Shown: positions 53,654 through 63,294, numbered from the stretch's first letter. The stretch: 64,000 nucleotides of DNA from an uncultured Acidobacteriota bacterium (GCA_964430745.1 CAYSHI010000304.1:5180-69179); one strand, 5' to 3'. A program made the numbers and translations. Notes: generated by a model not told the origin, from the letters alone.

Positions 53654-54346
53654 ATGACAATCCTCGCGGCACACCAACCTCAATACCTGCCCTGGCTCGG
53701 CTTCTTCGACAAGCTCGACCAGGCGGACGTGTTCGTCCTCCTGGACGACGTGCAGTTCAAGAAGAACGAATGGCAGAACCGAAACCGCATCAAGGGTCCG
53801 GCGGGGCCACAGTGGCTGACCGTCCCCGTGCGTCACAAGTTCCCCCAGTCGATCGCCGAGGTCGAGGTGAGGGAGGGCGAGCCCTGGCGACGGAAGCACC
53901 TGCGCGCACTGGAAACCAACTACGGCAAGGCGCCCTTCTTCGAGGCCGAGATGCAGCTCTTGGCGGAGTTGTTGGAGCGTCCGTGGACGCACCTCGCGCC
54001 GCTGAACATCGAGCTGACCCGCCGCCTTGTCGAGCGGCTGGGCATTCGCACCGACATTCGGATGAGCTCCGAGCTCTCGGCGCGCCGGCACCCGACGCTC
54101 CGACTCGTCGACCTGTGTCTCGGACTCGGAGCGGACATGTATCTATCCGGAGCCGGAGGCGACTATCTGGAGCGGGAGGCGTTCGATGCGTCCGGCGTCG
54201 GCCTCCGGTTCCAGCAGTTCACCCATCCGAGCTACGGCCAACTTCACGGTGAATTCGAGCCCTGCCTGTCGGTGGTCGACCTCCTGATGAACTGCGGCGA
54301 CGAGAGTCTTTCCGTCATTCAATCCGGTAGAATTGCCCCGTCATGA
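53654..54346 (+). CDS. WbqC-family protein
   Basis: 230 aa; AHQPQYLPWLGFFDKLDQADVFVLLDDVQF matches the WbqC-like N-terminus; common in O-antigen/EPS clusters. Confidence 0.7.
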   Translation: MTILAAHQPQYLPWLGFFDKLDQADVFVLLDDVQFKKNEWQNRNRIKGPAGPQWLTVPVRHKFPQSIAEVEVREGEPWRRKHLRALETNYGKAPFFEAEMQLLAELLERPWTHLAPLNIELTRRLVERLGIRTDIRMSSELSARRHPTLRLVDLCLGLGADMYLSGAGGDYLEREAFDASGVGLRFQQFTHPSYGQLHGEFEPCLSVVDLLMNCGDESLSVIQSGRIAPS

Positions 54347-54969
54347 GAATACTTGCGCTGGGTTGCCACCCCGATGACATCGAGTTCGGCTGCGGCGGAA
54401 CACTGTCGAAGTACGCCAGGGCCGGCCACGAGATCTACATGATGGTCATGACGCAGGGTCACGCGGGCGGCGATGACAGCCTGCGCCGGGCCGAGCAGGA
54501 AACCGCGGCGAAGATCCTCGGCTGCAAGAAGCTCTTCTGGGGCAACTACCGCGACACGGAGCTTCCGTTGAGTCGCAAGCTGATCCAGGGCATCGAGGAG
54601 GTGATCGAACAGGTCGCGCCATCGTTCATCTTCGTCCACTACGGCGACGACACACACCAGGACCACCGCGTGCTGTCGCAGGCAACCGTGACGGCTACCC
54701 GCTACACCCGCAACGTGCTGTTCTACGAGGGGCCGACGACGCAGAACTTCATCCCCACGGTCTTTGTTGCCATCAACGACGTCATCGCCCACAAGATCGA
54801 AGCGCTCGAGGCACACGCGTCGCAGGTGCGCAAAACGAACATCGGCGACCTCAATATCGTCGAGCTGGTCGAAGCCGCATCGCTCTTTCGAGGGACCCAG
54901 GCGCGCATCAAGCACGCCGAAGGATTCTCGCCTTTGCGCCTGTTCATCAACGTGTCGGCCGGGGAGTAA
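54343..54969 (+). CDS. PIG-L/LmbE-family deacetylase
   Basis: 208 aa; ILALGCHPDDIEFGCGGT and HQDH motifs. Confidence 0.8.
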   Translation: MRILALGCHPDDIEFGCGGTLSKYARAGHEIYMMVMTQGHAGGDDSLRRAEQETAAKILGCKKLFWGNYRDTELPLSRKLIQGIEEVIEQVAPSFIFVHYGDDTHQDHRVLSQATVTATRYTRNVLFYEGPTTQNFIPTVFVAINDVIAHKIEALEAHASQVRKTNIGDLNIVELVEAASLFRGTQARIKHAEGFSPLRLFINVSAGE

Positions 54970-54971
54970 CC

Positions 54972-56099
54972 TTGCCGGAGGCTGGCCCAACCGGCGACGC
55001 CATGACCGCAGACCACATCGCGACGATTCCCCATTCCCGCCCTCTGCTGGGCGCGGAAGAAGCGGCAGCGGCGGCCGATGTGCTCCGGTCCGGACAGCTT
55101 TCGCAAGGCCCGCGGGTCGCCGCGCTCGAGGCCGCGACCGCTGTCGCCGTCGACGCGGCGCCTTCGACCGAGCACGCCGCCACCCACGCGGTGGCCGTTT
55201 CATCGGGAACGGCGGCGCTCTATGTCGCGCTCAAGGCGCTCGGCGTGGCCGGCGGCGACGAGGTCTTGATCCCCGCGTTCGCGTGCGCCAGCCTGCACCA
55301 GGCGGTCGTTCACGCGCGCGCGACACCACGATTCATCGATTGTGACCCGCACTCACTGAACCCCGATGCGGACGACGCCCGACGAAAGCTCAGCTCGCGC
55401 ACCACCGCCTGCATCGTGCCCCATCTGTTCGGACTGCCGGCCGACATCGCGGCTTTCTCGGCCCTGGACGTCCCGGTTGTCGAGGACTGCGCCCAGACTC
55501 TCGGAGTGTCCGTCGGCGATCGCCGCGTCGGGAGCTTCGGAGTGCTGACCGTGTGCTCGTTCTACGCCACAAAGCTCGTCGCCGGCGGCGAGGGGGGCAT
55601 GGTCCTGTCGCGCGATCGTCGCCTCACCGATGCCGCCCGCTCGTTGCGTGACTGCGAGCAGTCGGACGCAGCGGAGGCCGCCTTCAACTTCAAGATGAGC
55701 GACCTTCACGCGGCCATCGCCCAGGTGCAGCTCCGCCGTCTCGACGACATCCTGCGCCGACGCCGCCTGCTTGCAGGCGCCTACCGCGAGGCCCTCGAAG
55801 ACGCCGGCGTGGACCTACCCGTCGAGCCGACGGCCGGCGGCCACGCCTGGTTCCGGTTCGTCGTCGGACTCCGCGCTACCGACATCGGCTCGCTGATCGA
55901 CCGCTGCGACCGACGAGGCCTGTCGTGCCGACGCCCCGTTGGCCGTCTGGCACCGGGAGTCGACCTGGACGCCCTTCCGGGCTGTCGCTCGGCATGGGAA
56001 GAAAGCTGCTCGCTTCCCCTCTATCCCGCGCTTTCCGACATCGAAGCCCGCCAGGTGCCCGAACGGTTCAAGGCGGCACTCGGAGGCGCCGATGACTAG
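54972..56099 (+). CDS. DegT/DnrJ/EryC1/StrS-family sugar aminotransferase
   Basis: SRPLLG..E start region and PLP fold; an alternative ATG lies at 55002. Confidence 0.8.
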   Translation: MPEAGPTGDAMTADHIATIPHSRPLLGAEEAAAAADVLRSGQLSQGPRVAALEAATAVAVDAAPSTEHAATHAVAVSSGTAALYVALKALGVAGGDEVLIPAFACASLHQAVVHARATPRFIDCDPHSLNPDADDARRKLSSRTTACIVPHLFGLPADIAAFSALDVPVVEDCAQTLGVSVGDRRVGSFGVLTVCSFYATKLVAGGEGGMVLSRDRRLTDAARSLRDCEQSDAAEAAFNFKMSDLHAAIAQVQLRRLDDILRRRRLLAGAYREALEDAGVDLPVEPTAGGHAWFRFVVGLRATDIGSLIDRCDRRGLSCRRPVGRLAPGVDLDALPGCRSAWEESCSLPLYPALSDIEARQVPERFKAALGGADD

Positions 56100-56168
56100 C
56101 CGCGTTCGCTCCCGAGACCGCCGAAGCGATCGGCGGCAGAGAGCCACGAACCACTCCCGGAGAGAGCG

Positions 56169-57734
56169 ATGACGAACCGAGAGCGCCTGCTGAGCTTCGC
56201 TTTGGCCGTGGTCGCCATCGTCTTGCTCCTGCCGCCGATCAGCGGTCTGTTTTTCGTCGCGGGAAACCGCTGGGTGTATGTGTTGGCGCTCAGCTTCTGT
56301 ATTTCCGGCGCCACCACTCCGGTGATTCGAGACGTTGCCGTCAGGATCGGGGCGGTCGACAAGCCCGACGGCGCGGAAGGCCGGAAGATCCACCAACGTT
56401 CGACCGCCCTGCTCGGCGGCGTCGCCGTCTGGTTCGGGATCGTCGGCGCACTCGTTGCCAACGGCGTGTGGCCCGCGGGGCTCGCCCCGGTTCTCGCCAC
56501 GGGCACGATTCTGCTCGTTTTTTCCGCCGCCGACGACGTGCGCCCGATCCGCACCTCCCTGAAGCTGGTAGCGTTTCTGGTGTGCGCCGCGTTCGCCGTG
56601 TCCGCGGGAGCCCAAGCCTCCATCTTTCCCCCGTCGCCGCTGGGCACGGCCGCGAATCTGCTCCTCAGCTTCGTGTGGATCGTCGGCATCTTCAACGCGC
56701 TGAACTTCCTCGATGGCATGGACGGGCTCGCCGCGGGCCTGTCGGTCGTTATCGCCGTTCTGATGGGCGTCGTCGCTTTCGAAACATCGCAGCCGGGGAT
56801 CGGCTGGGCCACGGCGGCAATCGCCGGCGCCTGCCTCGGCTTCATTCCCTACAACTTTCGCCCGGGCGGCCGCGCGACGATCTTTCTCGGCGACGCCGGC
56901 AGCAACTTCCTCGGCTTCGTCCTCGCCAGCCTGGCATTGTTGGGGTTCTGGGCCGAGGCCGACCCTCTGGTGGCGATCAGCAACCCGATTCTCATCTTCT
57001 CGGTGCTGATCTACGACATGACGTACATCACCATCGACCGCATTGCTTCGGGCAAGGTCCGTTCGTTCCACGACTGGATCGACTACACGGGCCAAGACCA
57101 CCTTCACCATCGGACCGCTGCCGTACTCGCCGGGCGCGGCAAGGCGGTGCTCTTCATCCTGATGATGAACACGGCGCTCGGCATCGCAGCTCTGGCGCTG
57201 CGCGGCGCAGACCGGGTCACGGCGGTCTTCTTGCTCGTTCAGGCGCTGTTGATCCTCAGCCTCATCACCATGCTCGAACGCCGTGGGAAGGGGCTCATCA
57301 GCGCTCTCTTGAAACAGGAGCCCCACATCAGCCGAGACCCGAACCGGCCGCCCGTCCTGGTCGTCGACTTCGACGGCACCATCGCGCTCTGGGCGCCCTC
57401 AGGCTATCCCGATATCGGCGAGCCGATCGAAGGCGCCCACCGATTCCTGCGGCTGCTCAAGAGCGAGGGCTGGAAGATCGTGATCAACAGCTGCAGAAGC
57501 GGCGTCGATCATGAAACTCGGATGGTCCGCTGGCTCACGGACCACAACATCCCGTTCGACGAGGTCAACCACAACTCGGATTATCCGTGGGCCAAGGGCA
57601 AGCCCGTCGGCGACGTCTACCTCGACGACCGCGGCGTTCGCTTCGAAGGCCGCTGGGACGCCGCTTATCAGAAGGTCCAGGAGTTGCTCCACCTCGCCGG
57701 CCAAAACGAGATCGCCTGCCGCGACGACGACTGA
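56169..57734 (+). CDS. polyprenyl-phosphate sugar-1-phosphate transferase (WecA/MraY family) fused to C-terminal HAD-like hydrolase domain
   Basis: About 10 TM helices with FNALNFLDGMDGLAAG (NxxNxxDGxDGL); C-terminal 120 aa soluble domain with DFDGT and GDVYLDDRG HAD motifs. Confidence 0.75.
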   Translation: MTNRERLLSFALAVVAIVLLLPPISGLFFVAGNRWVYVLALSFCISGATTPVIRDVAVRIGAVDKPDGAEGRKIHQRSTALLGGVAVWFGIVGALVANGVWPAGLAPVLATGTILLVFSAADDVRPIRTSLKLVAFLVCAAFAVSAGAQASIFPPSPLGTAANLLLSFVWIVGIFNALNFLDGMDGLAAGLSVVIAVLMGVVAFETSQPGIGWATAAIAGACLGFIPYNFRPGGRATIFLGDAGSNFLGFVLASLALLGFWAEADPLVAISNPILIFSVLIYDMTYITIDRIASGKVRSFHDWIDYTGQDHLHHRTAAVLAGRGKAVLFILMMNTALGIAALALRGADRVTAVFLLVQALLILSLITMLERRGKGLISALLKQEPHISRDPNRPPVLVVDFDGTIALWAPSGYPDIGEPIEGAHRFLRLLKSEGWKIVINSCRSGVDHETRMVRWLTDHNIPFDEVNHNSDYPWAKGKPVGDVYLDDRGVRFEGRWDAAYQKVQELLHLAGQNEIACRDDD

Positions 57735-57773
57735 TCTCCGCCCGGAGATGTCGCTCGTTCGGACTGTCGACGC

Positions 57774-58871
57774 TCAGCGCAGAAGCGCCGCCTCCACCAC
57801 CATCCCCGGGCCGAAGCCCACCGCGACACAAGGTCTCGGCGCCTCATTGCGGCGCAGGTCTTCGAGGATGAACAGCAGCGTCGCGGCCGACATGTTGCCG
57901 TACTCCGACAGTACCCGCCGGGACACCGCCATCGCTTGGTCGTCGAGACCCATGGCATCGGCGAAGGCGGTGAGAATGCGCGGGCCGCCGGGGTGTACCG
58001 CCCAGGTGGCAACGTCATCCACTTCGAGGTCGTTGGCCTCCAGCCATGCGCGCAACCAGTCGGCAAGGTTTCGCCGGATGAGCTCGGGAACACGCGCCGA
58101 GAGCGTCATGTGAAATCCGTGGTCGCCGATGTTCCAGGTCATCGCGTCGCCTGAATCGGGCATCAGCAATGTTCCGCTCGCGGTGGCGGACCACTCCGTT
58201 TCCGATGCCGCGGCCGGGTCCGCAAGGCCCACCAGCGCACCCGCGCCATCGGCGAACAAAGAGTTGGCGACGATCTTCTGAGCGTCCCAGCCGTAGAAGA
58301 AATGCAAGGTGCACAACTCGACGGCACACAGCAGCACGCGGGCCTCGGGATCGGCGCGGGTGAACGACCGCGCCACACGCAAGCCGTTGAGCGCCCCGTG
58401 GCAACCCATGAATCCCACATGGGTGCGCTGCACGGTTCGCGGGAGGTCGAGGCCCTCGATCAAGGCGGCGTCGATCCCCGGCGCGAGGAATCCCGTGCAC
58501 GACACCGTCACGACATGAGTAAAGTCACGCGGCGCGATCCCGGAGTCGTCGATCGCTCGGCGCGCCGCCAGCTCGGCCAGGCGAGGCGCCTCCGTCTCGT
58601 AGACCCGCATGCGCTCGCGCGTCGTCGGGCCGAGGTCACGGGCGTCTCGGGCACGGTGATAGAGAGCCTGGCGTGAGAACGGCTCACCCTCGGGACTCTG
58701 CAGCAGAACGCTGTGCCGTTTGCGCACACCGGCGCGACGGTAGAGAGCCGGGATGACGCGTCGCTTCTTCTCGTCGCCGTGGCAAAATGACTGGTTCACC
58801 TCGGCGACGTCGTCCTGCGTGATCGAGAAATCCGGCGAAGCGGTGCCGATCCCGGCGATTGTCAGGCTCAT
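57774..58871 (-). CDS. type III polyketide synthase (chalcone/stilbene synthase family)
   Basis: 365 aa; active-site Cys region VVTVSCTGFLAPG, FMGCHGALNGL, C-terminal GFGPG signature. Confidence 0.85.
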   Translation of the reverse strand: MSLTIAGIGTASPDFSITQDDVAEVNQSFCHGDEKKRRVIPALYRRAGVRKRHSVLLQSPEGEPFSRQALYHRARDARDLGPTTRERMRVYETEAPRLAELAARRAIDDSGIAPRDFTHVVTVSCTGFLAPGIDAALIEGLDLPRTVQRTHVGFMGCHGALNGLRVARSFTRADPEARVLLCAVELCTLHFFYGWDAQKIVANSLFADGAGALVGLADPAAASETEWSATASGTLLMPDSGDAMTWNIGDHGFHMTLSARVPELIRRNLADWLRAWLEANDLEVDDVATWAVHPGGPRILTAFADAMGLDDQAMAVSRRVLSEYGNMSAATLLFILEDLRRNEAPRPCVAVGFGPGMVVEAALLR

Positions 58872-60133
58872 GCCGGCCTCCCCTCATCGACCGGCGCCGC
58901 GTGCAGAAGCTGAACGAACGGAGCGCCGAGCGCCGGACGGCGCTCCAGCGTCCGGATGACCGCGCGCACTAACGGCGGACGGCGCAACAGCCATGCAAGT
59001 GCTCGACAAGCGCGCTGCGACCGTGCCAGTTCCCGCCTGTGAACGTGGCTCCATACGCCCACCAGATCATCCGACCAACGCTCCAACGCCCGCTCCAGGA
59101 TCGGCCCGAGGCTCACCGCCGATCGGACGGCCCAACCGATCCCTTCGCCCGTGAATGGCTCGACGTAACCCGCTGCGTCCCCGGCGGAAAACACTCGCTC
59201 AGCGGCAAGCCGAGGCGGGCGTTGGTCGAGGCGCGGAGTACCTGCCCAACGAGCGCGCGCCAATCCTTCGACGGGATCGAAGCCGGCGCCCTGCAGTATC
59301 CTCTGAGCAGTCTCCGCCAGACCCTCCTGGCGGACGGCCCGCGGATCGAGCGCCGCGGCGACGTTCAAGAGGCCGGCCTCGAGACGGACCACACCTACAT
59401 AACCCTCTTTCCCGACAGCCATGAAGATGGTTCCCGGCCGATAACCCGGCACGGGGGCGTCGATCGTGGCACTGCAGCCGATGCGCGATCCGACACGAAC
59501 CGTTCCGCTCCCGGCAGCCGGCGCAGGATCGCGCTGTTGCCGAGCGAGCAACCTGCTGCCGAGTCCGGATGCGTCGATCACGATCCGGGCGGCCACGTCG
59601 TGGCGGGCACCCGCCGAGCGCAGCACCGCGTGGCGCCGGTCGGCGTCAGCGGCGCCTATCGCAGCGCTGTGCGCAGGCAGGAAGTCCGCTCCGGCCTCCA
59701 CCGCCTCGGCAACCAGGGCGGCGTCCATGGCGCGCCGCGAGATCGACAGCCCCACCGGGAGGGACAGCTCCGCGGCGCGACTCCATCCTCCCAGTCGCAG
59801 GCGGCGCACCTCTCTCCCACCGAGGGCCGCGACAACTCGTCCCAGGCCGGCGGCGTCCATGGCCGCCAGTGTTCGGGCGCTCAAGCACCCCCCGCAAACC
59901 TTGTCGCGAGGAAACGTGCTGCGGTCGACGAGCAGGACGCTTCGACCGTTGACCGCCGCCTGCCGTGAGATCAAGGCGCCTGCCGGACCCGCCCCAATGA
60001 CCATGACGTCCCACAAACGGTCACTCGCAGTCGCCGCGCTCGTCGTCGCCGCGTTCGTCCTCGCAGTCGCCCCGTTCGTCGTCGCCGTCGCCGCGTTCGT
60101 CGTTGCCGCGCTCGCCGTCGCCGCGGCGGTCAT
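58868..60133 (-). CDS. FAD-dependent oxidoreductase (geranylgeranyl-reductase/flavin monooxygenase-like) with Thr/Ala-rich N-terminal repeat
   Basis: ATGA overlaps with both neighbours; DVMVIGAGPAG...CGG dinucleotide-binding motif; N-terminal 36 aa TA-rich tract encoded by a 15-21-bp tandem repeat (60001-60125). Confidence 0.75.
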   Translation of the reverse strand: MTAAATASAATTNAATATTNGATARTNAATTSAATASDRLWDVMVIGAGPAGALISRQAAVNGRSVLLVDRSTFPRDKVCGGCLSARTLAAMDAAGLGRVVAALGGREVRRLRLGGWSRAAELSLPVGLSISRRAMDAALVAEAVEAGADFLPAHSAAIGAADADRRHAVLRSAGARHDVAARIVIDASGLGSRLLARQQRDPAPAAGSGTVRVGSRIGCSATIDAPVPGYRPGTIFMAVGKEGYVGVVRLEAGLLNVAAALDPRAVRQEGLAETAQRILQGAGFDPVEGLARARWAGTPRLDQRPPRLAAERVFSAGDAAGYVEPFTGEGIGWAVRSAVSLGPILERALERWSDDLVGVWSHVHRRELARSQRACRALAWLLRRPPLVRAVIRTLERRPALGAPFVQLLHAAPVDEGRPA

Positions 60134-60795
60134 GGCTTGACCCAGGTGAGGCTGTAGCGACGAGGCCAGCAGCGCCTCACGCGCGCCGACAGCCCTGCGC
60201 GCTGCGCCAAGCCAACGGCCTCCGAGGGCGTGAAGGAGGCACGCACCGATATCGGCCCGTCGTTGCGGGCGACACCGGATCGGGTAAGAACGCGCAGGCC
60301 GGCGTAGGCGAGGGCATAGCCGATCCGACTTCGTTCGAGATCCTGGACAACGAGCATGCGCCGCGTCGCCGCCGCCATCCGCGCCAACAGGCCGACGGCC
60401 TGCGCCTCGTCGAGGTGATGCAAGAAGAGCGTGCTGCAGATTACGTCGGCGTCCCTCGGCAGGTCATCACAAAGCACATCGAGGTGGAAGAACCGTGCCG
60501 TCGAACCCGACTCCGCCGCCCTCTCGGTGGCCATCGCCACAGCAACCGGGCTGGCGTCGCACCCGCTTACCTCCAGGCCGACGCCCGCTCGTTTCGCCCG
60601 GTTCTCGAGACCTACGGCCACATCCCCACCCCCACAGGCAATATCGAGCACGCGCCACGGACGCTCGGCCCGACGCGGCATCAACGAACGGATGTCTGAC
60701 CACAGGTGCGCAGCGCTGCGCGATACGTGATTGACGCGTCGTAGGGCCTCGAGGGCGCGCCGGTGGCGAGACTCGTCGAGATTCGGCGAGTCCAT
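60130..60795 (-). CDS. class I SAM-dependent methyltransferase
   Basis: Start at internal ATG 60795; SAM motif VLDIACGGGDV; first gene of the MT-oxidoreductase-PKS operon. Confidence 0.7.
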   Translation of the reverse strand: MDSPNLDESRHRRALEALRRVNHVSRSAAHLWSDIRSLMPRRAERPWRVLDIACGGGDVAVGLENRAKRAGVGLEVSGCDASPVAVAMATERAAESGSTARFFHLDVLCDDLPRDADVICSTLFLHHLDEAQAVGLLARMAAATRRMLVVQDLERSRIGYALAYAGLRVLTRSGVARNDGPISVRASFTPSEAVGLAQRAGLSARVRRCWPRRYSLTWVKP

Positions 60796-61000
60796 GATCT
60801 CGGGTTGGCGACAGCGTCGAAGATGGTGCACGCAACGAGTATAGTCAGGTGCCGCGCCGTCGTGCCGAGCCGACCTCGGGCGGGTATTCGCCGGCTGACA
60901 GACCTTCGGCGAAGTTCCGCCCCCGGTGAGGGGTTTCCGGCGGGGCGCTAGCTGCGTACACTTGCGCACAGCAACGCGCACTTATGCGCAGGATTTCACC

Positions 61001-61029
61001 TTGACACTCTAGCGATCGATCCATAGAGT
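61001..61029 (+). promoter_or_regulatory. sigma70-type promoter TTGACA-N17-TAGAGT with embedded 24-bp near-palindrome (operator)
   Basis: Perfect -35, 17-bp spacer, good -10. Spacer plus -10 form actctagcGATCGATCcatagagt (20/24 symmetric). Three TGCGCA-like half-sites just upstream (60963-60990). Confidence 0.5.
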
Positions 61030-61149
61030 AGAACACACTTGAGCTTGTTCATACGCACCCGTGAACAGCCCTCGCCTGCCGGGAGTTCCTCGCTCCAGAG
61101 CAGTTGGAGGGAGGCGCGGACACTGTCCGGTACGCTGAAGGAGAATGCA

Positions 61150-61341
61150 ATGCAGGAAACGCGACCAACCATCATGACGCTGGACGAAGTAGCCAAGTTT
61201 CTTCGTCTGCACAAATCCACCGTGTATCGGATGGCGCGCGAGGGACGGCTACCCGGCAACAAGGTGGCCGGACAGTGGCGTTTCAAGAAGGAGCGCTTGG
61301 TCGAGTGGTTCGAGAAGCAGCAGGAATTGGGCGAGCTCTGA
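61150..61341 (+). CDS. excisionase-family (HTH_17) DNA-binding protein (63 aa)
   Basis: RBS aaggag; PTIMTLDEVAKFLRLHKSTVYRMAREGRLPGNKVAGQWRFKKERLVEWF; paralog of 63064..63294. Confidence 0.6.
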   Translation: MQETRPTIMTLDEVAKFLRLHKSTVYRMAREGRLPGNKVAGQWRFKKERLVEWFEKQQELGEL

Positions 61342-61462
61342 CGCCCCAACCCCCTCACGGGGGGCCCGACAGTGGCCCCGGCCCAGCCAGCTTGAAGCTC
61401 CCGCGCTCTTGGAAAGCCTCCGGCACCCGGGGCAGGCGCGTCGATGAATCCTACGCTTCTAC

Positions 61463-62029
61463 TCAGCCGAAGAGCGCGTGGTGCAGCTCGGGGCCGAGTT
61501 CCCGAGCGTCGTCCTCGCTGAGCTCCGTAAGCCGGTAAGGCAGCAGCGGGGGGCTCTCCACCTCGTGCAGGAAGTAGTCGGGACCCACGAGGAACTCGCG
61601 CCGGGCCGGAAGGTAATACACGGTCGCCACACGTACCTCCGGCGTATTTCGGCGCGCCGTGCGCCGCAGATACCTCATGACCTCGTAGATCGTGCGCCCG
61701 GTGTTGAAAACGTCGTCTACGAGCAGCAGTTGATCATCCGCTTCGACGACATCGAGCACGTGCTCGAAGCCCTTGATGTCGAAACCGTCGCCGTGGAGCA
61801 CTCCCTCGAGCGACTGCGTGCGAATGGCCGTGTGGTACGGATCGTGGCCCTTCCAGCGAAAGAACTCCTGGATCACGATTCCCGGGGGAGCGCCGCCTCG
61901 CCACAACCCGATGAGAAAATCGGGCCGATATCCGTCGTCCCATATGCGGCGGGCCAACCGAAAACAATCGATGAGGTAGTCGTTGGGGTCGACGACACGG
62001 CGTCGGCTCGCCCCTTCCGCCTCGCTCAC
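61463..62029 (-). CDS. type I phosphoribosyltransferase-family protein (purine PRTase-like)
   Basis: 188 aa; PRPP-binding motif LLLVDDVFNTGRT. Confidence 0.7.
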   Translation of the reverse strand: MSEAEGASRRRVVDPNDYLIDCFRLARRIWDDGYRPDFLIGLWRGGAPPGIVIQEFFRWKGHDPYHTAIRTQSLEGVLHGDGFDIKGFEHVLDVVEADDQLLLVDDVFNTGRTIYEVMRYLRRTARRNTPEVRVATVYYLPARREFLVGPDYFLHEVESPPLLPYRLTELSEDDARELGPELHHALFG

Positions 62030-63063: not shown

Positions 63064-63294
63064 ATGGTTATGACGGACTCAACAAAGGCGAGCGTCGAAC
63101 GACGCCCCACAATCATGACCCTCGACGAGGTCGCCAAGTACCTCCGGGTCCACAAGTCGACCGTCTACCGGATGGCGCGGGAGGGTGCGATTCCTTCGAC
63201 GAAGGTCGCCAACCAGTGGCGCTTCAAGAAGGCCCGGATCGACGAGTGGTTGATGGAGCGAGAGCGCGAGGGCGACGTCGACTTCGACGAATAG
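63064..63294 (+). CDS. excisionase-family (HTH_17) DNA-binding protein (76 aa)
   Basis: PTIMTLDEVAKYLRVHKSTVYRMAREGAIPSTKVANQWRFKKARIDEWL; preceded by an AT-rich roughly 180-bp region (62880-63060). Confidence 0.6.
   Translation: MVMTDSTKASVERRPTIMTLDEVAKYLRVHKSTVYRMAREGAIPSTKVANQWRFKKARIDEWLMEREREGDVDFDE

Follow-up and report, generated by a model that had tools for sequence, protein, structure and literature searches.

The described systems closest to the locus analysed here are the cyanobacterial hidABC cluster and a planctomycetal operon. hidABC (MIBiG BGC0001962) encodes hierridin B/C biosynthesis in Cyanobium sp. LEGE 06113, and hid-like clusters are found in cyanobacteria. Hierridin B, a dimethoxy-alkylphenol, is 5-pentadecylresorcinol that has been O-methylated twice and hydroxylated once, and its formation requires one additional ring oxygen; recombinant HidA O-methylates 5-pentadecylresorcinol, whilst hydroxylation by HidB, the sole oxidoreductase of the cluster, has been proposed only, and the literature identifies no enzyme for the chlorination of hierridin C. 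Milke et al. 2024 (PMC10896814) reported a methyltransferase-oxidoreductase-polyketide synthase (PKS) operon, with Gimesia maris and Rhodopirellula baltica among its carriers, in 58 of the 131 planctomycete genomes, and PKSs of this operon were shown in the same study to produce C15/C17 alkylresorcinols. There, co-expression of mtr and fdo from G. maris added one methyl group, probably C-linked, fdo co-expression gave no hydroxylated product and the role of fdo was left open; no antibiotic or beta-lactam phenotype was found for the products. Genome mining of sponge metagenomes had already found hierridin-like type III PKS clusters, the closest related clusters including one from an Acidobacteriota metagenome-assembled genome (MAG). 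Here we describe a locus within a 64,000-nt stretch of DNA (the window) from an uncultured Acidobacteriota bacterium (GCA_964430745.1, CAYSHI010000304.1:5180-69179), in which genes for a methyltransferase (MT), a flavoenzyme and a type III PKS lie divergent from a small gene of the HTH_17 family. This is very probably a hidABC-type (mtr-fdo-t3pks) alkylresorcinol operon. As such it is a further copy of a known operon, and otherwise a routine biosynthetic gene cluster annotation for which antiSMASH/MIBiG would be expected to return a hierridin-like label.

A methyltransferase-flavoenzyme-PKS operon in an Acidobacteriota genome

The gene order of the window, class I S-adenosylmethionine (SAM)-dependent MT, flavin adenine dinucleotide (FAD) oxidoreductase and type III PKS, is that of hidABC in another phylum, a likeness in gene order as given in the published description. 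Relative to the hidABC type, the flavoenzyme of the window bears an additional repeat-encoded N-terminal tail. The planctomycetal mtr-fdo-t3pks operon matches the window in all three genes and in their order, from which the window departs in its acidobacterial host and flanking genes. Identities to the G. maris proteins were obtained from machine-read supplementary gene sequences containing indels, of which only intact 60-nt lines were translated; these amounted to 50 % for the PKS (110/219 clean residues), 44 % between the MT and Mtr (30/68) and 40 % between the flavoenzyme and Fdo (55/137). Planctomycete MAG loci with the same synteny encode PKSs 48-57 % identical to that of the window, in agreement with the ~50 % G. 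maris figure.

The sequence-only reading of the window had described three minus-strand genes joined by ATGA overlaps and encoding a SAM methyltransferase, a flavoprotein and a type III PKS. The coordinates and both overlaps were verified (Table 1), and Methyltransf_25, FAD_binding_3 and Chal_sti_synt_N/C domains confirmed the three gene assignments. The two 4-nt stop/start junctions, MT/flavoenzyme and flavoenzyme/PKS, read ...AAGCCATGACC... and ...CCGGCATGAGC... on the minus strand, and a Shine-Dalgarno (SD)-like run, GAGGGGAGG, is present upstream of the PKS start. The cassette genes are probably translationally coupled via these overlaps. A longer MT reading frame starting at GTG-60981 (60130-60981, 283 aa) was rejected, as every homologue begins to align at residue 1 of the ATG-60795 frame, whose start context CCCGAGATCATG is conserved; ATG-60795 is also the right start because a conserved -10-like box falls inside the GTG-60981 extension. 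The window shares this box, as a conserved CTATACT 5' of the MT gene, with the homologous loci (given by L number) L001, L002, L003, L008, L083, L086, L087, L089-L091 and L107. The three genes would thus have a promoter of their own built on the conserved TATACT ~40 nt 5' of the MT gene; a sigma70 scan of 57600-61500 found no consensus -35 for it. Transcription is predicted to start near 60831 on the minus strand and, for the HTH_17 gene, near 61036 on the plus strand. GC content showed no clear anomaly as a signature of horizontal transfer, at 66-73 % in the cassette vs 62-69 % in its flanks.

We searched 80 genome loci recovered by the PKS with the three window proteins (tblastn), and counted as informative the 71 with at least 2 kb of DNA upstream of the PKS. 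MT, flavoenzyme and PKS were found in the same order and on the same strand in 69 of these 71, spanning at least eight phyla. This is far above chance, and answers a concern raised with the sequence-only reading, that the three genes might not form a conserved unit in related genomes. Hosts comprised Acidobacteriota, Gemmatimonadota (including Longimicrobiales), Planctomycetota (including Kuenenia), Hydrogenedentota, Elusimicrobia, Sumerlaeia, a Nitrospiraceae MAG and an FCB-group MAG, the closest relatives of the window PKS coming from Acidobacteriota MAGs. An NCBI protein encoded on a 71.8-kb contig is identical to the window PKS. A cyanobacterial MAG carried homologues 42, 41 and 37 % identical (MT 42 %, flavoenzyme 41 %), arranged alike and with the flavoenzyme and PKS genes overlapping at their junction. 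Among 67 loci, the flavoenzyme and PKS genes overlapped by 4 nt in 30 and were no more than 17 nt apart in most others, so tight coupling is a family trait. The cassette is therefore spread more widely than the cyanobacterium-planctomycete pair of the literature, reaching Gemmatimonadota, Hydrogenedentota, Elusimicrobia, Sumerlaeia, a Nitrospiraceae MAG and anammox bacteria, and this far wider distribution weakens the idea of a specific exchange between cyanobacteria and planctomycetes. It also adds Acidobacteriota from marine and sediment settings to the range of an experimentally characterised alkylresorcinol operon.

Some loci departed from the common layout. Two planctomycete loci carried MT and PKS without the flavoenzyme, like S. 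maiorica (L075), or the PKS only (L078), and in five others (L039, L042, L072, L077 and L080) the oxidoreductase in the middle position was much more divergent, at 28-30 % identity. The full cassette was present in a MAG of the anammox bacterium Candidatus Kuenenia stuttgartiensis (L054), with a PKS 49 % identical to that of the window; to our knowledge, alkylresorcinol-type lipids are not part of the described anammox lipidome.

The sequence-only reading had placed the locus alongside the SrsABC, ArsABCD and BpsA/BpsB systems. Its core, a conserved operon of PKS, MT and flavoenzyme for a decorated long-chain phenolic lipid, stands, as does the enzymatic logic shared with those systems, but hidABC is the nearest relative, and gene order, MT family and the presence of fatty acid synthase (FAS) genes set Srs, Ars and Bps apart. 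In srsABC (Streptomyces griseus) and pkqABC (Mycobacterium smegmatis, Streptomyces sp. MNU77), the alkylresorcinol formed by a type III PKS is then methylated and oxidized by a flavoenzyme to yield alkylbenzoquinones used in hypoxic respiration and spores. Their products are thus alkylquinones with a respiratory role, and their gene order is PKS-MT-oxidoreductase as opposed to MT-FAD-PKS here. The MT also differs: one srsB homologue, encoded in a cluster that shares 51-63 % identity with the S. griseus srs operon in its three core proteins, carries the annotation isoprenylcysteine carboxyl methyltransferase (ICMT), a membrane family, whereas the MT of the window is of the soluble class I Rossmann type. 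ArsABCD (Azotobacter vinelandii) and BpsAB (Bacillus subtilis) resemble the present locus in deriving alkylresorcinol/alkylpyrone membrane lipids from type III PKSs. Ars requires two type I FAS-like genes (ArsA/ArsD) plus two type III PKSs, and Bps is a two-gene pair of a PKS and a membrane ICMT-type MT without a flavoenzyme. Within 53-64 kb of the window we found a single type III PKS and no type I FAS/PKS gene. What the locus shares with Srs is thus its chemical logic and not its family.

Enzymes and predicted product

The PKS has the domains Chal_sti_synt_N and Chal_sti_synt_C (Pfam/NCBIfam), and its catalytic motifs are intact, with the Cys (FMGCH), His (VHPGG) and Asn (YGNMS) aligning with the triad region of PKS18. 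Its closest solved structures (140-177 bits) are type III PKSs acting on long-chain acyl substrates, namely Ectocarpus PKS1, a mycobacterial CHS-like enzyme, PKS18, Steely1 and Pks11. The enzyme would take a long-chain fatty acyl thioester and three malonyl-CoA units, and would close the ring by aldol condensation to give a 5-alkylresorcinol. It is very unlikely that it instead makes alkylpyrones or a non-lipid aromatic in the manner of DpgA or RppA, even though DpgA is its best NCBIfam match and the pyrone synthases PKS18 and Pks11 are amongst the closest structures. The match to DpgA (3,5-dihydroxyphenylacetyl-CoA synthase; NF042429) scored 150.9 bits, well under the cut-off of 425, and this assignment was rejected; the window PKS is also much nearer to the resorcinol-forming planctomycete enzymes, at ~50 % identity, than to PKS18, with matches to the PKSs of the genome loci reaching 380-600 bits vs 160 bits for PKS18. 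In addition, the Trp of AMTWNIG in the window PKS, like a Trp in the G. maris enzyme, aligns with a Leu of the pyrone-forming PKS18. We take this position to be the equivalent of CHS Gly256. In ArsB, Trp281, as against the Gly of ArsC, has been reported to favour resorcinol over pyrone formation; by our own mapping, the AMTWNIG Trp would correspond to ArsB Trp281 and so favour a resorcinol product.

The MT matched Methyltransf_25/12/11/23 in Pfam (class I Rossmann) and PRK06202 in NCBIfam at 217.7 bits (cut-off 243), and the Pfam search returned no ICMT/PEMT domain. By analogy with HidA and with the mtr and fdo co-expression of G. maris, it would methylate the resorcinol ring or its hydroxyls.

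The flavoenzyme is the least certain of the three. Its domains were FAD_binding_3, FAD_oxidored and Lycopene_cycl (Pfam/NCBIfam), and an AlphaFold (AF2) model built from 37 homologues (pLDDT 86.9, pTM 0.87) displayed a PHBH fold. Foldseek comparison with the PDB gave TM scores of 0.6-0.72 at 15-21 % identity to halogenases (FasV, PltA, Bmp2, CmlS), the geranylgeranyl reductase (GGR)-like 3oz2 and aromatic hydroxylases (protocatechuate hydroxylase, PqsL, PHBH); since these matches are roughly equal across the three groups, the fold leaves the chemistry undecided. Pathway logic makes ring hydroxylation our best guess, and a reasonably likely one: the PHBH-fold flavoenzyme would hydroxylate the ring, hierridin B having an extra ring oxygen and HidB being the only oxidoreductase of its cluster. 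The competing proposal is that the enzyme is a GGR-like reductase or a halogenase and that the product is not hydroxylated. It is encouraged by the best NCBIfam family being GG-reductase, by the PR-x-K-x-CGG-like and GDAAGYVEPFTGEGI motifs, by the presence of FasV, PltA, Bmp2, CmlS and 3oz2 amongst the top Foldseek matches, by the chlorination of hierridin C and by the failure of fdo co-expression to yield a hydroxylated product. We nevertheless consider it unlikely. The GGR family (TIGR02032) scored 116.3 bits, short of its 158.8 cut-off, and 3oz2 matched the fold at TM 0.70, no better than hydroxylases or halogenases, leading us to reject that assignment; saturated alkylresorcinols, moreover, have no obvious C=C substrate for a reductase. 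Flavin-dependent halogenases are marked by a WxWxIP motif and a catalytic Lys ~60 residues after GxGxxG. The flavoenzyme sequence has no WxW(xIP), and K78 is the sole invariant Lys amongst the 37 aligned homologues, so a halogenase is disfavoured.

Motifs conserved across the 37 aligned homologues are GxGxxG, FPR-x-K78-V-C80-G-x-C83-L and GDAAGYVEPFTGEGI. The second of these (residues 75-83; window 59885-59911) resembles the GGR motif PxKxCGG with an extra Cys, and both C80 and C83 are invariant in 37/37 HidB-type proteins. The N-terminal tail encoded by the tandem repeat accounts for the first ~38 residues and is absent from the ~390-aa homologues, which cover ~90 % of the query; residues 1-21 have pLDDT < 50, and the tail is disordered in the model. 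The distance from the MT stop to the conserved W41 is 120 nt here vs a median of 44 nt, and a TTG at codon 40 offers an alternative start.

In sum, returning to the hidABC-type assignment, the pathway would end in a hierridin-related lipid, an alkylphenol or hydroquinone that is both methylated and hydroxylated. Several points weigh against this. The product of the acidobacterial members is extrapolated from tested homologues of other phyla, the G. maris identities are those of short segments of error-bearing machine-read sequence, and placement was by homology to G. maris and cyanobacterial MAG proteins. For the flavoenzyme, fdo co-expression in the planctomycete study gave no hydroxylated product, the closest sequence family is GGR-like, and fold neighbours do not separate hydroxylase, halogenase and reductase.

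With regard to function, the cassette lipid could conceivably be an alkyl (methyl/methoxy) benzoquinone or hydroquinone that, as the PkqABC products do, serves the membrane as an alternative electron carrier, in place of a secondary metabolite or barrier lipid. PKS, MT and oxidoreductase are the enzyme set of pkqABC/srsABC, and no antibiotic or beta-lactam phenotype was found for the planctomycete products. Conservation of the cassette across free-living phyla is also very wide and vertical, with the same chromosomal position kept in related Acidobacteriota, and because of this wide vertical conservation and fixed position a physiological function fits better than an allelochemical one. Against an electron carrier, neither the MT nor the gene order is homologous to that of pkq/srs, hierridin B, as the sole known end product of this cassette type, is a dimethoxy-alkylphenol and not a quinone, and no respiratory genes were identified by Pfam/NCBIfam amongst the flanking genes; we regard it as quite unlikely. 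A broader proposition is something of a long shot, namely that the hid-type cassette, found in at least nine phyla and at a fixed position in these Acidobacteriota, is not a niche secondary-metabolite cluster but a pathway of wide occurrence leading to a redox-active alkyl-hydroquinone/quinone membrane lipid, in which a HidB-type flavoenzyme of a distinct clade carries out a reaction new to PHBH-fold enzymes. The locus points to a question common to all members, namely what the HidB/Fdo flavoenzyme catalyses and which purpose the final lipid serves.

The divergent HTH_17 gene and its promoter

A 354-bp spacer separates the MT gene from the divergent HTH_17 gene. The sequence-only reading had placed this 63-aa gene behind a TTGACA-N17-TAGAGT promoter, for which both domain and promoter were confirmed, and had proposed a palindromic operator for autoregulation and/or control of the biosynthetic cluster; control of the cluster found no support in comparison with related genomes. 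The protein belongs to a 79-member cluster at 90 %, and its promoter was the only sigma70-type match in 57600-61500 (3.9 kb) vs 0.2 expected. We aligned the spacer with four genome orthologues, and afterwards inspected 27 orthologues from metagenomes. The -35, the -10 and the 17 bp between them were invariant or nearly so throughout the 29 orthologous loci, and the YGCRCA repeat block upstream was likewise conserved in the 29 promoters, including loci without the PKS cassette. Three TGCGCA half-sites had been described here; exact copies number only two, at 60963 and 60985, and are accompanied by two one-mismatch forms, TGCGTA at 60953 and CGCGCA at 60975. TGCGCA was not enriched in the window.

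The near-palindrome at the -10 exists as described (Table 1). Twelve palindromes of this kind occur in the window vs 5.5 in shuffles, with a chance of ~0.02 of finding one in the 354-bp spacer. Its centre, GATCGATC, sits in freely varying spacer and is absent from orthologues, the palindrome being limited to the window and a near-identical copy (L081). It was therefore rejected as an operator on the variability of its centre, the chance probability of ~0.02 being noted alongside, and is most likely fortuitous.

Orthologues fell into three arrangements. In group A (window, L001, L002, L008, L081-L093 and L107) the order was GT4, PKS-FAD-MT, HTH, phosphoribosyltransferase (PRT)-NadE and a second HTH gene. 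Group B (L094-L106; HTH 85-90 % identical) had HTH then PRT-NadE; wherever the available sequence reached 6 kb upstream, that stretch held no cassette. Group C (L004, L006, L114, L115 and L117) had PKS-FAD-MT-PRT-NadE without this HTH_17 gene. The synteny of HTH_17 follows PRT-NadE and not the cassette, which indicates that it belongs to the NadE-PRT backbone. A pathway-specific regulator acting via the 61006-61029 palindrome and the TGCGCA sites would be in keeping with the divergent arrangement across a shared spacer, the overlap of the palindrome with the -10, the recurrence of this arrangement in ~14 closely related loci and the conserved YGCRCA repeats. We judge it highly improbable, however, and synteny largely refutes it: 85-90 % identical orthologues keep the promoter and repeats with no MT, FAD or PKS gene within 6 kb (L096, L099-L102), and most cassettes lack the HTH gene, among them those of group C and of all sampled non-acidobacterial loci, such that co-occurrence of regulator and cluster across genomes was not found for HTH_17. 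Furthermore, 3.5 kb of other genes lie between HTH and MT in one Acidobacteriota MAG (L003), the palindrome centre is not conserved, and the repeats are 110-150 bp away from the putative -10 of the operon. The divergent gene would instead be an independently conserved, strongly promoted gene for a small DNA-binding protein of the local NadE-PRT backbone. Its cis elements, on the pattern of conservation, are those of its own gene's expression, and they may bind an activator or the HTH_17 protein itself.

The insertion in L003 (2875-6128) comprised a GT2-methyltransferase fusion and a 650-aa multi-pass membrane protein, and the TATACT box had moved together with the MT gene.

The HTH_17 expression module as a whole, comprising repeats, TTGACA, 17-bp spacer, TAGAGT and leader, was unusually well conserved across the 29 loci (window 60953-61149, L081-L107, L001-L003 and L008). 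A non-coding leader of ~110-125 nt was always present in the HTH_17 orthologues examined, with 82 % mean column identity over 13 distinct sequences. Indels of 2 nt amongst orthologues exclude coding, and an N-terminal extension of the HTH protein (TTG-61039 ORF) was rejected on these grounds. In the close group the leader is predicted to form a hairpin and possibly an SD-occluding helix; a structured or riboswitch leader was considered on this basis, but RNAalifold on the 13 distinct leaders gave a covariation term near zero for both, and there was no Rfam match at E<=1.

Features of the locus and flanking genes

Coordinates are collected in Table 1. The terminator-like hairpin beyond the PKS gene came from a consensus scan only, in which the number of hairpins found equalled the shuffle expectation.

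Table 1. Features of the cassette, the divergent HTH_17 gene and their surroundings (window coordinates; lengths of cassette proteins from the open reading frame list)
Feature	Position	Strand	Remarks
Sugar-modification set of WbqC-like, PIG-L deacetylase, DegT aminotransferase and GT4 (WecA/MraY-like)-HAD-phosphatase-like C-terminal fusion (521 aa) genes	53657-57734	+	convergent to PKS
Terminator-like hairpin	57711-57728	-	46 nt past PKS stop
Type III PKS	57774-58871	-	365 aa; C-terminus ...VGFGPGMVVEAALLR
Flavoenzyme	58868-60133	-	421 aa
In-frame tandem repeat, periods 15/21/36	60024-60125	-	TRF; encodes Ala/Thr/Asn-rich N-terminal extension of flavoenzyme
Methyltransferase	60130-60795	-	221 aa when counted from ATG
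Putative -10 TATACT of MT-flavoenzyme-PKS operon	60838-60843	-	~40 nt before MT ATG; predicted function
Four phased YGCRCA repeats (TGCGTA, TGCGCA, CGCGCA, TGCGCA)	60953-60990		directly upstream of HTH_17 -35
HTH_17 promoter, TTGACA (61001-61006)-N17-TAGAGT (61024-61029)	61001-61029	+	sigma70 consensus
24-bp near-palindrome ACTCTAGC-GATCGATC-CATAGAGT	61006-61029		10/12 pairs
Conserved non-coding HTH_17 leader, ~113 nt	61037-61149	+	hairpin 61043-61069; SD GAAGGAG 61137-61143
HTH_17/excisionase-family DNA-binding protein	61150-61341	+	63 aa; PF12728 63 bits; TIGR01764
Second HTH_17 paralogue	63064-63294	+	76 aa; divergent from nadE

The flanking genes encode WbqC, PIG-L, DegT and a GT4-HAD fusion on one side and HTH_17, PRT, NadE and the second HTH_17 on the other. 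No obvious similarity to the leader or promoter of the first HTH_17 gene was seen upstream of the second (63064). Orthologues of this second gene, 62-69 % identical to the first HTH_17 protein, occupy the same position in L004, L006, L085-L091 and L114-L117, and in related Acidobacteriota the GT4 gene keeps its synteny with the cassette.

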